A program made the position numbers and the translations under genes. The notes below the pieces were generated by a model. That model ran no database searches. It worked only from the letters and a program-made list of their open reading frames with translations, and had not been told where the DNA came from. Below are positions 6,545 through 59,328 of a stretch of 64,000 nucleotides of DNA, in pieces. Source of the DNA: a virus (Duplodnaviria; Heunggongvirae; Uroviricota; Caudoviricetes); the IMG/VR virus record IMGVR_UViG_3300045988_151230. One strand, written 5' to 3'. The stretch's first letter is position 1. Each line of letters opens with the position of its first letter.

Positions 6545-6604
6545 GTGTTTTCTCTTATCGTTTAGTTACTACATTCTTACATAAAATAAGTAGGTATTTA
6601 CCTA

Positions 6605-8290
6605 TCATTTAACGCGTTTGAAAACGTATACGCTGACTGTGATCCCTGTGTCTTCAAACTCGTTGGTAAACGACTTCCCTCTGGCATAAACGTAATTATC
6701 CATCGTCATCCAGTCCAGTATTGGCGCAGTGCCCGGCAATACTGCTACAAGACGCCCGCCGACTTTCAGATGCCCCAGCGCAGCCAGCGTGTGCTCTCTA
6801 TGACGACCAAGCGAGTACGGCGGGTTCATAACGATTTTGTCGAACTGATAACCTACGTTGTCCTCAGACCACTTTATGAAGTCGCAGCAAATCGTGTTCG
6901 TATACCCTTTTCCGCGCAGGATATCAGCGAAGAGAGGTGCGATTTCTATGCAGGTAACATCTTCCAGATCGGCGTTGATATAGGCCAGAAGATCCCCACG
7001 TCCGGCTTGAGGCTCCAGCAGCTTCTCACCAGACTTCAATTCAGTGGCTCTGGCAACGTACTCAGCAATCAAGCGTGGGGTAGGGTAGAACTGGTGTGAT
7101 TTTGTATCCGGTATTAATCCGGTAGCCACAATCGTATTTAGCGTATGGCCGATCTCATACGGGAACTGCCAGTGTTTTTTCTCCTGCACGCCGCCAATGA
7201 AGCTCAGTGTGCGCTCAAGCTCTTCCACCTGCGACTTCTGGAGAGCTGAATCAGAGAAGTACCATACGCCTTTGTCTTTGCTCAATCGCCCGTCACGAAG
7301 CGCAGTGCGAACCGGCACGGAGATCGTCTTCTGGATTAACCCGAACTGCTTTGGTGCCCGTGTTTTTGGTGCGGTGCGACATGGCGCGGGGATTGCAGCA
7401 GGCATACTGTAAGCCAGCACCTCATTCAACTTCCAGGCCACGTCAGGATGTATTTCAAAGTGAACGTTGCCGTTCTTGAACATCTTCACGCGCATCAGAT
7501 TTCCATCGACGTTCATCCAGTCACCGGTCTGGCAGTCGTTTGCCCGATACGCAGCTGATAGCACCTCAGCAGTGCGATTGATGGTAATAAATTCTTTGTG
7601 CGCGAAGAAATGAAGCAAGACACGCAGATCGTCGATGTAGTCCTCTTTGCGATAGTTCACGCTAACGCTGTCCCGCCAGAAATCAGAAATGCAGTCAGCG
7701 ATTATCAGCCGCTCGCTGAAACCGTTTGTCTTATTTGTCTTGTGCGCAGGACTCAGCGCCTTAAACAAGCCATACACGCGCTCAGAGAGATATTTGTGCC
7801 TGTCATTCAGCAAATTAAGCATCGTGGGTATGACCGTTTCTGCTTTGAACTCCGGTACACCAACGAACTCTTTAACCTTCATCTGGTAGCCGGTTCTGTC
7901 AGTTTTGATGACTTCCTGTTTGCCCTCTATAAACTGCTCGCGCCACTCATCTCGACGGGAAGCTGGCATGATCAGCAAAACGTTAGTCATGTCCGTGACC
8001 TTCCTCCAGTACTCGGCCCAAATATTCTGTTTCACCCATTCCAGATCGACTTTATCCAACCAACCTCGATTTAAACGCGAGCGATCTTCATCTGGTCGAT
8101 GGTTTAGTCTCAGCAGGCGATTAATCATGTTGTGGCGTTCGTCGCCATAAACGAAGTCGTGTACCTGATACATGAAGGCGATCTCTTTCTCGCACTCGGC
8201 CACGATTTCGTGGATGACATTCATTTCCTGACGATAGTCGATAGCCGTGTTTGAGCTGGCATCGTCGATGATGGAAAGGGCTGTATTCAT
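6605..8290 (-). CDS. N6-adenine DNA methyltransferase with a roughly 390-aa N-terminal domain of unknown function
   Basis: C-terminal motifs QFYPTP, LEPQAGRGDL (motif I) and VMNPPYS (motif IV). Confidence 0.65.
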   Translation of the reverse strand: MNTALSIIDDASSNTAIDYRQEMNVIHEIVAECEKEIAFMYQVHDFVYGDERHNMINRLLRLNHRPDEDRSRLNRGWLDKVDLEWVKQNIWAEYWRKVTDMTNVLLIMPASRRDEWREQFIEGKQEVIKTDRTGYQMKVKEFVGVPEFKAETVIPTMLNLLNDRHKYLSERVYGLFKALSPAHKTNKTNGFSERLIIADCISDFWRDSVSVNYRKEDYIDDLRVLLHFFAHKEFITINRTAEVLSAAYRANDCQTGDWMNVDGNLMRVKMFKNGNVHFEIHPDVAWKLNEVLAYSMPAAIPAPCRTAPKTRAPKQFGLIQKTISVPVRTALRDGRLSKDKGVWYFSDSALQKSQVEELERTLSFIGGVQEKKHWQFPYEIGHTLNTIVATGLIPDTKSHQFYPTPRLIAEYVARATELKSGEKLLEPQAGRGDLLAYINADLEDVTCIEIAPLFADILRGKGYTNTICCDFIKWSEDNVGYQFDKIVMNPPYSLGRHREHTLAALGHLKVGGRLVAVLPGTAPILDWMTMDNYVYARGKSFTNEFEDTGITVSVYVFKRVK

Positions 8291-8443
8291 AATTACACCA
8301 TTAAATAATTTGTTTTCTGATTGGTGTAATTATCGCAAACTTGAAAAGGCATAAAAGCTGCATTCATAGGCGTTACAGCAGATTTAAGGCGTAAAAATGG
8401 GGGCTGTCGCCCCCTGTCGACTGGTGATGTATTAGAGTGCGTA

Positions 8444-8998
8444 TTACGTTTTGTGCGGCTGCTTATTCAAGTCATGGCGATGCGTGAGCTCCCGCATCAT
8501 GTCTTCAAGGCGACTCTTTGTGTCGTCGAGCTGGTCGGCCATTGCACCTAAAAGCTGGCGAACGGCCATCGGATCGTCGCTGTTTAGTGATGGCATTTTA
8601 GAACCTGCTTTAGAAGACATAAGGTTGATTGCAGACATCAACATCGTTAGAGAGGATTTAAGCCCGGCAATTTCACGATCTTTGCTGGCAATAATCGTCT
8701 CACTTTTGTTACCGTCATCAGTTTCTTGAGTCTCGCTCACCATATCCAAAGTCGCTTGCAACTTATCAGCTCTCTCTTTTTCAGCAAGGTAATGAACACC
8801 GAAATGGTGTGCCAAAGCTACAATCTGAGTTGGCTCTTCAAAGGTGGAATTAAAATTAAGTATTGTAAACAGTCTCTCAAATATGGAAACGTCTTCTATT
8901 CCTCGAAGAATGGCTAACATTTTGACCAGTTCATTAGCATCCATTTCTTCGAATAAGGCGTTTTGTTCATCAGCTATTGCTTTGCATTTCTCGCACAT
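8444..8998 (-). CDS. hypothetical protein
   Basis: 184-aa ORF with the recurring leader and upstream palindrome. Confidence 0.45.
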   Translation of the reverse strand: MCEKCKAIADEQNALFEEMDANELVKMLAILRGIEDVSIFERLFTILNFNSTFEEPTQIVALAHHFGVHYLAEKERADKLQATLDMVSETQETDDGNKSETIIASKDREIAGLKSSLTMLMSAINLMSSKAGSKMPSLNSDDPMAVRQLLGAMADQLDDTKSRLEDMMRELTHRHDLNKQPHKT

Positions 8999-9014
8999 GT
9001 GTTTTCCTTAATGC

Positions 9015-9034
9015 TTAAACAAGTTGTTTTCTTA
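9015..9034. promoter_or_regulatory. recurring near-palindromic motif TTAAACAAGTTGTTTTCTTA
   Basis: 17-36 bp upstream of the start at 8998; one of at least seven similar copies. Confidence 0.45.
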
Positions 9035-58255: not shown

Positions 58256-58272
58256 GTGCTTTCCTTTGTTTT

Positions 58273-58291
58273 TTAAACAAATTGTTTTCTA
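58273..58291. promoter_or_regulatory. recurring near-palindromic motif TTAAACAAATTGTTTTCTA
   Basis: 18 bp upstream of the helicase start. Confidence 0.45.
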
Positions 58292-58298
58292 GTATTAG

Positions 58299-59048
58299 TT
58301 AATTAGATAGGGGATCAATAAACCGCCGTGCTTCTTCCAGTTCTTCTGGAAAGTGGGCGGAAATAAGGCGCTCTGGAACGATTTCCATTAGCCAGATAGC
58401 GGAGAAAATTGCGCGTATGCGCTTACTGCGAGGGATGGTGCGCAAACGCTCCAGAATCCACTCAAAATAGCTTTCCTGAATCGGGTTGAACTGCATGTCT
58501 CCCATATACTTAAAGCTAACCAGAGAGTCATCCAGACGGGTTGTTGCGCGTCTGGCTAATTTCTCTTCAAATATCTCAATCAGTTCTGGCTGCCATAAAT
58601 GCTGTGGGCGCGGCAGCTTGTCCCACAGCCGTCGTGCAGCTGCGGAAAGAACGGTGGAGATAAAGTAGTCGTATGAGCAGCAATAGCGGTCAGCAAACTG
58701 GCGTGCTTTCCATAGAGACGTTTTATTGGCAGTCGACAACTCCTGATAAGGCAGGCGTTTTAACCCGGTGGTGAACGGAGCTGTTTCAAAGTGTTCGCGA
58801 CCGTGCGTCAGCATGATATTTGAGTACTGACGTTTGTATGCCTCCGTAAACAGACAGGTGGCCATAAGAGGATGCATGTCGCGGTAATCAAACCACTTCG
58901 TCTCGAAGAGTTCAGCCTCATCTTTACAGCGCGACAAACCAATGTTTTCAGCGACCCACTTGTCCATAACAGCGGTATTCCACTCTGTCATGAAGTCGTA
59001 CTGGTCGTTGTCGATGGTATCGAAAAAGATTTGGCTCATGTGGCTCAC
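58299..59048 (-). CDS. hypothetical protein, possible helicase-associated factor
   Basis: 249-aa ORF directly upstream of the helicase gene; function inferred from position only. Confidence 0.4.
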   Translation of the reverse strand: MSHMSQIFFDTIDNDQYDFMTEWNTAVMDKWVAENIGLSRCKDEAELFETKWFDYRDMHPLMATCLFTEAYKRQYSNIMLTHGREHFETAPFTTGLKRLPYQELSTANKTSLWKARQFADRYCCSYDYFISTVLSAAARRLWDKLPRPQHLWQPELIEIFEEKLARRATTRLDDSLVSFKYMGDMQFNPIQESYFEWILERLRTIPRSKRIRAIFSAIWLMEIVPERLISAHFPEELEEARRFIDPLSN

Positions 59049-59328
59049 CTGGTAGGTAGTTACTTACTTATCACAATGAGCGGATGATAGCGACTGGTGG
59101 CAGTTTTTGGAAGTGAAAACGGAAGGGAGTTGTTCTGGTGGTGTCTTTTAAAAGACCTGCTTCCGTATATATTTAATAAGTTACTTATTATTTATATACA
59201 GAAACAGGCTCCTAATGGATACCAAGAACAACATAATTTGACTCCAACCCCAGATGCTATGTCATTGACAGATTTATCAAGGGAGATCATGTTAGAATCA
59301 GTGTTTTAGCCTCGTGGATATTGTCACC

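Follow-up and report, generated by a model that had tools for sequence, protein, structure and literature searches.

The 64,000-nt stretch of viral DNA analysed here (IMG/VR record IMGVR_UViG_3300045988_151230, hereafter the window) carries a family of dispersed palindromes, which we tentatively read, with slightly less than even confidence, as the operators of one regulator that would belong to the conserved core of SSU5-like phage-plasmids and repress their lytic operons. The window is ~97% identical to Escherichia phage Cyrano (i.e., the phage-plasmid pLF82 of E. coli LF82) and shares ~79% identity with Salmonella phage SSU5; judged by this identity, its source element is an SSU5-like phage-plasmid. 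It corresponds to 27.2-91.3 kb of Cyrano, reversed and with a few inserts of its own, and nearly all its genes lie on the minus strand. Its gene content serves replication, recombination and nucleotide metabolism, with products such as DNA polymerase III alpha, a gp32-like single-stranded DNA-binding protein (SSB), a RecA-like protein, SbcCD, NrdAB, ThyX, a ligase, a primase and a helicase, and an accessory cassette encoding an integrase and a helix-turn-helix (HTH) protein is also present. SSU5-like phage-plasmids are common and clinically relevant; they include pHCM2, pMT1 and pLF82 as well as many plasmids of Klebsiella and E. coli, of which some carry resistance genes. In the searchable literature we found no description of how they silence ~100 kb of lytic genes, nor of the motif itself.

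The palindrome family and its conservation

The initial annotation had reported inverted repeats at some ten places, and each of the coordinates it listed holds a member of one palindrome family, namely the 20-mers at 6586, 12850, 23705, 28404, 33864, 38650, 49052, 52096, 55618 and 59052. The family itself is thus real, but the literal 9-mer offered as its repeat unit, TAGGTAAGT, occurs in only 4 exact copies (expected 0.24), and the family is therefore degenerate. A position weight matrix trained on the window alone, with the symmetrised consensus TGATAGGTAAGTACTTACCTATCA, returned 19 window sites scoring at least 16 bits, against a null mean of 0.04 and a null maximum of 1. Written as ATArGTAAGTACTTACyTAT, the motif is present in 17-19 strong and 3-4 weak copies. 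Among these are sites beyond the ones first listed, at 10637, 11810, 17688, 17826, 31911, 45564 (intragenic) and 54741, while membership is less certain for 12187 and 59176, both of them degenerate and AT-rich. The excess is also evident with an untrained pattern, TARGT-N8-ACYTA, for which the window has 9 exact matches where 0.12 are expected (0/100 shuffles reach 9), and 22 matches with at most one mismatch where 4.5 are expected.

When the window-trained matrix was applied to other genomes, the site counts were 27 for Cyrano, 23 for SSU5, 22 for Klebsiella pJN2-26 and 15 for ST13-OXA48phi12.3, a record that is incomplete at 84 kb and was left out as a second HTH-less test case; shuffle nulls, run on Cyrano and SSU5, gave 0.02-0.04. 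The sites in these four genomes fall at the same gene junctions, including those of structural and lysis modules that lie beyond the window, and the most over-represented 10-mers of pJN2-26 are core words of the motif. Site cores are 0.81-0.85 identical to those of SSU5 and pJN2-26, compared with 0.61-0.72 for the immediate flanks. The window sites and their matrix scores are as follows.

6586..6605, 27.2 bits: palindrome between a DUF4942/methylase-like gene and 5840..6544(-), with an extended -10, TGTAAGAAT, on its gene-ward side
10637..10656, 23.9 bits: palindrome just past the stop codon of an RNase H-like gene, upstream of 10013..10507(-)
11810..11829, 21.1 bits: palindrome upstream of a short region orthologous to CYRAN_81
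12187..12206, 19.7 bits: uncertain site, degenerate and AT-rich, kept in relatives, a poor match to the TARGT-N8-ACYTA core
12850..12869, 25.8 bits: palindrome 11 nt upstream of the adenine-methyltransferase gene 12245..12838(-)
17688..17707, 18.7 bits: palindrome upstream of the ThyX gene
17826..17845, 16.1 bits: palindrome after a MazG-like gene, followed by TGTATATT and then by a separate GC-rich terminator (17775-17757)
23705..23724, 28.2 bits: palindrome upstream of nrdA, 21344..23659(-), overlapping a TTGATA-N17-TAACAT promoter call, with a separate T-run hairpin at 23699-23676
28404..28423, 25.9 bits: palindrome upstream of the SbcD-like gene 27206..28291(-), with TGTATATT downstream
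31911..31930, 24.2 bits: palindrome upstream of an open reading frame (ORF) for a small membrane protein, overlapping a TTTATA-N16-TATCAT call
33864..33883, 26.2 bits: palindrome filling the 17-bp spacer of TTGAAA-N17-TATTAT (10/12 matches), directly after the terminator of the RecA-like gene (33919-33899)
38650..38669, 26.7 bits: palindrome upstream of the gp32-like SSB gene 37537..38565(-), overlapping a TAGATA-N17-TATCAT call
45564..45583, 18.4 bits: the sole intragenic strong site, within the CobT-like gene 44270..46378(-)
49052..49071, 25.8 bits: palindrome in a stretch that has no Cyrano counterpart, overlapping an ATGACT-N17-TATAGT call
52096..52115, 27.6 bits: palindrome with TGTGTATAAGAT downstream, the next minus-strand genes being the tRNA cluster 51347-50797
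54741..54760, 16.7 bits: palindrome with one good and one degenerate half, 2 nt upstream of the ORF 54256..54738(-)
55618..55637, 22.6 bits: palindrome upstream of 54794..55576(-), with an extended -10, TGTGAGAAT, downstream
59052..59071, 24.3 bits: palindrome immediately upstream of 58299..59048(-)
59176..59195, 16.7 bits: uncertain site, degenerate and AT-rich, ~120 bp upstream of 59052
46892..46911, 12.4 bits: variant ATCGGTAAGCACTTACCAGA at -10/+1 of the candidate HTH promoter TTTACA-N16-TAATAT (46866-46893)
44216..44252, 14.2 and 12.5 bits: two overlapping weak matches upstream of the CobS-like gene 42939..44174(-)
32238..32257, 14.1 bits: weak match, intergenic

The two arms of a site do not covary: out of 8 positions, an arm pairs with its own partner at 5.58 and with the arms of other sites at 5.73 in the window, at 5.52 vs 5.55 in Cyrano and at 6.13 vs 5.93 in SSU5, and many sites combine one good half with one poor half (e.g., 54741). 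A selected hairpin, whether of RNA or as a cruciform, was rejected on this ground. The sites are two-fold symmetric and their half-sites are conserved independently, which is the signature of a symmetric DNA-binding protein; we infer that such a protein, a dimer or a dimer of dimers, would bind the double-stranded DNA sequence-specifically, recognising two TA(A/G)GT half-sites placed exactly 8 bp apart.

More distant relatives were collected by a search with the terminase protein, which led to SSU5-like neighbourhoods that were sampled within +/-10 kb of the terminase gene. These came from Kluyvera, Yersinia pestis, Morganella, Xenorhabdus, Photobacterium, Halomonas and a Piscirickettsiaceae metagenome-assembled genome, and further from Chitinibacter, Oxalobacter, Castellaniella, Faunimonas, Roseospira and Methylocystis. 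In all of them, and hence across alpha-, beta- and gamma-proteobacteria, palindromes occupy syntenic junctions, with the invariant core TAAGT-N8-ACTTA and a gap of 8 bp in every relative. The inner bases differ, being AAGTACTT in Enterobacteriaceae and Yersinia, variable in Morganellaceae and CA-N4-TG in Photobacterium, Chitinibacter, Faunimonas, Roseospira and Methylocystis; clade-specific inner bases would thus extend the recognised element to the 20-mer given above in the clade of Escherichia, Salmonella, Klebsiella and Yersinia. The drift of the motif tracks terminase divergence. Since the motif follows the phylogeny of the element, and survives in alphaproteobacterial hosts, which are not known to have SlmA (a host nucleoid-occlusion factor considered below), its binder is likely to be encoded by the conserved core of the element.

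Placement of the sites and promoter geometry

All strong window sites but one are intergenic and lie upstream of minus-strand genes, and in Cyrano, which is fully annotated, 25/27 sites are intergenic although non-coding DNA makes up 13% of the genome (P=2e-20). The accessory block of Cyrano at 85-105 kb holds no strong site, though it accounts for 30% of the non-coding DNA; the sites therefore track lytic-cycle operons and not non-coding DNA generally. Most of the genes that are reported to be expressed in LF82 lysogens lie in this block (PMC9928086).

Sigma-70-like promoter calls fell below the dinucleotide-shuffle expectation in three scans of window positions 5000-64000 (20 vs 30.7, 17 vs 26.9 and 9 vs 32.2+/-7.1), which suggests selection against stray host promoters. 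Despite this depletion, 6-7 of the few promoter-like calls on the minus strand have a palindrome overlapping them in the spacer. Two arrangements can be distinguished. In the first, which is seen at 33864, 23705, 31911 and 38650, the spacer is taken up by the palindrome, whose 3' end forms the -10 together with the bases that follow; at 49052, the site itself contains the -35 (ATGACT), with a separate -10 (TATAGT) beyond its end. In the second, the 24-mer is followed at a distance of 1-5 nt by the start of an extended -10 (TGn-nAnnnT), on the gene-ward side in 19/106 instances and on the mirror side in 1, which places the site at about -42 to -19, over the -35 region. One fixed downstream -10 for every site was rejected, as it holds for a subset only and the sole general -10-like signal is the site's own edge.

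The clearest promoter-like arrangement is found within the 3' end of the portal gene, where the palindrome is the 17-bp spacer between cTTGA(A/T)A and TAT(G/C/T)AT, and it is conserved at the nucleotide level in E. coli, Salmonella, Klebsiella, Yersinia, Kluyvera, Morganella, Xenorhabdus and Photobacterium. A good -35 and -10 at optimal spacing should work unaided, so that a protein bound in the spacer would be expected to repress; in an E. coli Psbs::lacZ reporter, a binding site between -35 and -10 suffices for repression (PMC3573117). Repression is, we infer, the more likely sign of the regulation. Under this reading, the sites would mark core promoters of replication, nucleotide-metabolism, recombination, structural and lysis operons, at some of which the site would fill the 17-bp spacer and supply the first -10 bases, while at others it would cover the -35 before an extended -10. 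The bound protein would shut out RNA polymerase and the whole lytic gene set would stay silent, as in the plasmid-prophage state.

The network proposed in the initial annotation, likened there to that of P1, holds up in so far as dispersed sites lie on or next to promoters of many operons, as with C1 or KorB; its assignment of the HTH protein as the regulator does not (see below). C1 of P1 is a plasmid-prophage repressor of many operons, with operators scattered over ~100 kb, several of which overlap promoters, and one regulator acting from dispersed operators on a large extrachromosomal replicon would resemble it. The C1 operators are asymmetric 17-bp sites, whereas the palindromes here are symmetric, span 18-20 bp, also precede structural and lysis operons and are common to relatives from three proteobacterial classes. 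One operator before nearly every lytic operon, from E. coli to Alphaproteobacteria, would define the lytic regulon of these elements, and the motif offers an experimental handle by which to find the regulator and to predict promoters in new members of the family.

Candidate binders and the sign of regulation

In the 10 kb on either side of the terminase gene, nearly every relative keeps genes for UvsW, the ParB_N proteins CYRAN_119 and CYRAN_120, two ABC-type ATPases and CYRAN_123, a protein of 88 amino acids (aa). The binder would then be encoded outside the window, its best candidates being CYRAN_123, which is MarR-like, or the CYRAN_119/120 pair. CYRAN_123 lies directly upstream of terS, and its presence in this element is assumed from the 97% identity to Cyrano. 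The operon at 5144-8317 of Cyrano, which occurs family-wide directly upstream of terS, joins the two ParB_N proteins, the two ABC-type ATPases (one of them annotated as a fusion to an acetyltransferase-like domain) and the MarR-like winged helix. A palindrome is conserved upstream of this ParB_N/winged-helix operon in all relatives, consistent with autoregulation.

CYRAN_123 has no Pfam match, but its family profile matches the MarR-type proteins ST1710 (E=8e-5), PH1061, AdcR, SlyA and OhrR over the recognition helix and wing. It is conserved in 14/15 of the family members compared, and within the phage collection its homologues are confined to the 12 deposited SSU5-like records. Its recognition helix (QF/YF vs HF/QC/QS/HC) splits in step with the half-site (TAAGT-A/T vs TAAGT-C), a suggestive correspondence. 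As judged from this profile, a winged-helix dimer on a 16-20-bp palindrome that overlaps -35 and -10 would be a MarR-like arrangement; CYRAN_123 differs in being only 88 aa long, without the usual N- and C-terminal dimerisation helices, and MarR regulators usually act at one or a few promoters rather than at ~25. CYRAN_119 and CYRAN_120 each have a clear ParB_N domain, then a variable acidic linker and then a conserved C-terminal segment, for which no significant match to solved structures was found, and which on our reading of the alignment may be RHH-like. The FljA-like CYRAN_114 and the RHH-like CYRAN_117 were rejected as family-wide binders, being clade-restricted. Scans of IMG/VR with the winged-helix and ParB_N candidates did not separate them, the 80 loci retained from each all being close relatives.

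Several points weigh against repression by such a core-encoded protein. Most sites have no recognisable -35, with G at its third position in only 9/71, and an activator that replaces -35 recognition would explain this equally well. About 8/27 Cyrano sites are 1-21 nt from the next start codon, too near to hold that gene's promoter, some sites fall between a stop codon and the same gene's terminator, and the argument for repression is drawn from geometry alone. The match between recognition helix and motif class in CYRAN_123 is confounded by phylogeny. The list of genes reported at 5-fold or more over background in the LF82 lysogen (PMC9928086) does not include CYRAN_119-123, although a repressor filling ~150 sites per cell might be expected to appear on it. 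Finally, a conserved binder could also be encoded outside the sampled +/-10 kb around the terminase, even within the window.

Among the alternatives, we give most weight to an activator, although we consider it unlikely: a conserved dimer of the element (e.g., the winged helix near terS) would recruit host RNA polymerase to promoters that have no -35, and the sites would mark a phage-specific promoter class that is switched on after induction, like the T4 MotA boxes at -30 or the inverted repeat of the P1 Lpa late promoter. The missing -35 consensus and the depletion of canonical sigma-70 promoters fit such a scheme, as does the centre of the site near -30.5 in the extended -10 subset. The motif is invariant among relatives, which is typically the case for activator sites linked to polymerase but would be unusual in operators of immunity. 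In the lysogen, genes that follow a site are silent, and the reported list of expressed genes does not include those of the candidate binders either. A small DNA-binding gene directly before terS is, moreover, the usual position of a late activator in many siphoviruses. Set against this are the promoters at 33864 (TTGAAA-N17-TATTAT) and within the portal gene (TTGAAA-N17-TATGAT), where the palindrome sits in an optimal spacer, so that a bound protein should block polymerase and no activator would be needed. The same site also precedes both replication and structural genes, for which a single activator would provide no temporal order, and the variant at the HTH promoter sits at -10/+1.

T4 middle promoters, in which a phage motif (the MotA box) stands in place of the -35 before many short units, often with a stem-loop following in T4-type cassettes, are the nearest known parallel to such a class. 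The likeness lies in a motif before many units with stem-loops beside it, in an element that carries T4-like replication genes (gp32, UvsW and UvsY). The MotA box is asymmetric and AsiA-dependent, while the sites here are palindromic, and the window-Cyrano breakpoints do not coincide with them. Palindromes as recombination hotspots or cassette boundaries were rejected in the same comparison, since 1/24 ends of window-Cyrano homology blocks is near a site.

Returning to repression, a more specific version of it, which we regard as fairly improbable, is that the ParB_N pair, with its CTPase fold, loads or binds at the palindromes and, as a KorB-like clamp, silences the lytic programme from ~25 operators, possibly together with the MarR-like protein. 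KorB of RK2 (IncP), a member of the ParB family, exerts global repression from a dozen dispersed short OB palindromes at varying distances from promoters. The likeness is in the two conserved ParB_N proteins and the site before their operon; the site sequence is different, and CYRAN_120 matches KorB weakly (E=0.037) and over the N-domain only. If true, a phage, and not a plasmid, would here make use of a global gene silencer of the ParB type.

Alternatively, the palindromes could be ParB/Noc/KorB-type or centromere-like sites that serve partition, DNA organisation or clamp loading in the first place and transcription only secondarily, with a parallel in the dispersed SopB centromeres of prophage N15. 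We think this improbable. The family-wide conservation of two ParB_N-domain proteins, the conserved site immediately before their operon in all relatives, and the number, dispersal and palindromic form of the sites would suit such a role. On the other side, the accessory block is avoided despite its plentiful non-coding DNA, the distance from site to -10 element is specific to one orientation, and the promoter context of the sites is conserved. CYRAN_119 and CYRAN_120 are in addition poorly conserved across relatives past ParB_N until the C-terminal segment, which has no structure match, although the phmmer match of CYRAN_119 to Spo0J extends to residue 154, within this poorly conserved region, so that a central HTH may be present; a separate ParA gene is located elsewhere in the element (60807..61475).

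Very improbable is that host SlmA binds the sites of the enteric clade, so that the element would use or titrate it and thereby influence promoters or cell division. The consensus core of that clade, GTAAGTACTTAC, agrees with the half-site rule for SlmA, G-T-purine-A-G-pyrimidine, in which A at position 3 leaves the dissociation constant unchanged and any pyrimidine is accepted at position 6 (PMC3020112), and the 20-bp consensus derived from chromatin immunoprecipitation, GTAAGTGAGCGCTCACTTAC, has the same outer TAAG/CTTA (PMC4423959). SlmA-binding sequences of E. coli thus share a similar 20-bp architecture with 4-bp-offset GTnAG units, and sites within one mismatch of the rule number 8-18 per genome against ~2 expected. 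The only window 12-mer that follows the rule fully, GTAAGCACTTAC at 46896-46907, is at the HTH promoter, where pJN2-26 has GTAAGTACTTAC. No TetR/SlmA homologue encoded by the window or by four relative genomes was found with phmmer or tblastn (two of these five sequences being incomplete), which leaves no element-encoded SlmA/TetR-like candidate among them.

Site by site, the agreement breaks down, and host SlmA as the binder was largely rejected for this reason, for its matrix scores and for the persistence of the motif in SlmA-less hosts. With a family definition that is blind to the inner bases, both inner halves are right at the four critical positions in 0/21 window, 1/28 Cyrano, 3/26 SSU5 and 5/23 pJN2-26 sites, and on the phage matrix the natural SlmA sites of E. 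coli reach only 5.4, 6.1 and -2.9 bits. The information content of the phage motif is elsewhere, its best-conserved positions being the outer ATA and a TA every 4 bp rather than the critical A and G of SlmA. Relatives from Morganellaceae retain the motif although its inner bases are unrelated there, and those from Alphaproteobacteria keep it as well. Chromosomal SlmA sites are, unlike the palindromes, mostly intragenic (2/24 intergenic; PMC5519180). A narrower notion, that enteric sites which follow the rule might additionally be bound by host SlmA, is more exotic than silencing by the ParB_N pair; neither the motif string nor a link of SlmA to SSU5-like elements was found in the searchable literature.

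The HTH gene, terminators and other features

The initial annotation proposed the HTH protein of the window as the master regulator, a proposal that does not survive comparison with SSU5, which keeps 23 strong sites at the same junctions and in which tblastn at E<=10 found no HTH homologue. Two features describe the locus.

46940..47326(+): Xre-type HTH gene, orthologue of CYRAN_45, in the accessory integrase-HTH cassette
46867..46937: separate inverted repeat, TTACAACC(ctaa)CCTTTG ... CAAAGGTTGTAA, flanking the HTH promoter

The integrase-HTH cassette is present in 9/12 deposited relatives. A related variant of the palindrome does lie just upstream of the HTH gene, as had been noted (GGTAAGCACTTACC at 46892-46911), and it is conserved in Klebsiella pJN2-26. 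The promoter itself, TTTACA-N16-TAATAT, is flanked by its own inverted repeat, TTACAACC...GGTTGTAA, which is unrelated to the dispersed palindrome and is likely to be the autoregulatory operator of the HTH protein. Because the variant sits at -10/+1 of this promoter, the HTH gene is probably a target of the palindrome-binding factor and not the binder; the variant would then make this accessory gene one further target of the regulator.

That the palindromes are nevertheless operators of the HTH protein, as a P1-C1-like master repressor, is highly unlikely. The protein is of the Xre type, the variant overlaps its promoter, and its gene is at 10 times background in the LF82 lysogen (PMC9928086). 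This is outweighed by the 23 sites of HTH-less SSU5, by pJN2-26, where the HTH protein is only 57% identical and the motif unchanged, by the motif core kept in very distant relatives and by the distinct inverted repeat around the HTH promoter. Attention moves, accordingly, away from the annotated 'putative repressor' CYRAN_45, which is apparently a gene of an accessory cassette and a target rather than the master switch.

We give hardly any credence to the palindromes being intrinsic terminators, an alternative that the initial annotation had left open, or RNA hairpins in processing or stability: although they are inverted repeats in intergenic DNA, some directly after stop codons, their arms do not covary and often include a degenerate half, their stems are AT-rich with no loop and no T-tract, a terminator scan called 0 of the sites but did pick up distinct GC-rich hairpins with T-runs beside several of them, and an Rfam scan of the window matched tRNAs only and no family at the palindromes.

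Several further features adjoin the sites. Downstream of site 11810, the region 11700-11810(-) is orthologous to CYRAN_81, a 44-aa 'ORF', and contains hairpins; instead of coding for a protein, it may specify a small RNA. CYRAN_81 is reported at 12 times background in the LF82 lysogen (PMC9928086). The window encodes four tRNAs at 50797-51347(-) (Ser-TGA, Thr-TGT, Tyr-GTA and Asn-GTT, by ARAGORN), three of which were confirmed by Rfam, and the palindrome at 52096, the nearest upstream of the cluster, with TGTGTATAAGAT after it, could be the tRNA promoter region. The leader of the gp32-like SSB gene, 38570-38650(-), is conserved, with a GCUC-GAAA-GAGC tetraloop hairpin and more conserved sequence besides, and is common to SSU5 and in part to Klebsiella relatives; it recalls gene 32 of T4, which is subject to translational autoregulation. 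Start codons repeatedly carry the string AAAACACATG, which was counted 7 times in pJN2-26 and is seen at several gene starts of the window (e.g., as ggaaaacacATG at the sites 6586, 33864 and 38650); it is a shared translation-initiation context.

Between nrdA and nrdB, the segment 20030-21323, which is missing from Cyrano, is an insertion sequence within the nrd operon, the ORF 20050..21372(-) being a DDE transposase (PF01609, E=2e-20). At 1606-1995(-), the window encodes a 129-aa protein consisting of a peptidase S24 (LexA/UmuD-like) domain alone, without a DNA-binding domain, which could be relevant to the reported induction of Cyrano by ciprofloxacin.

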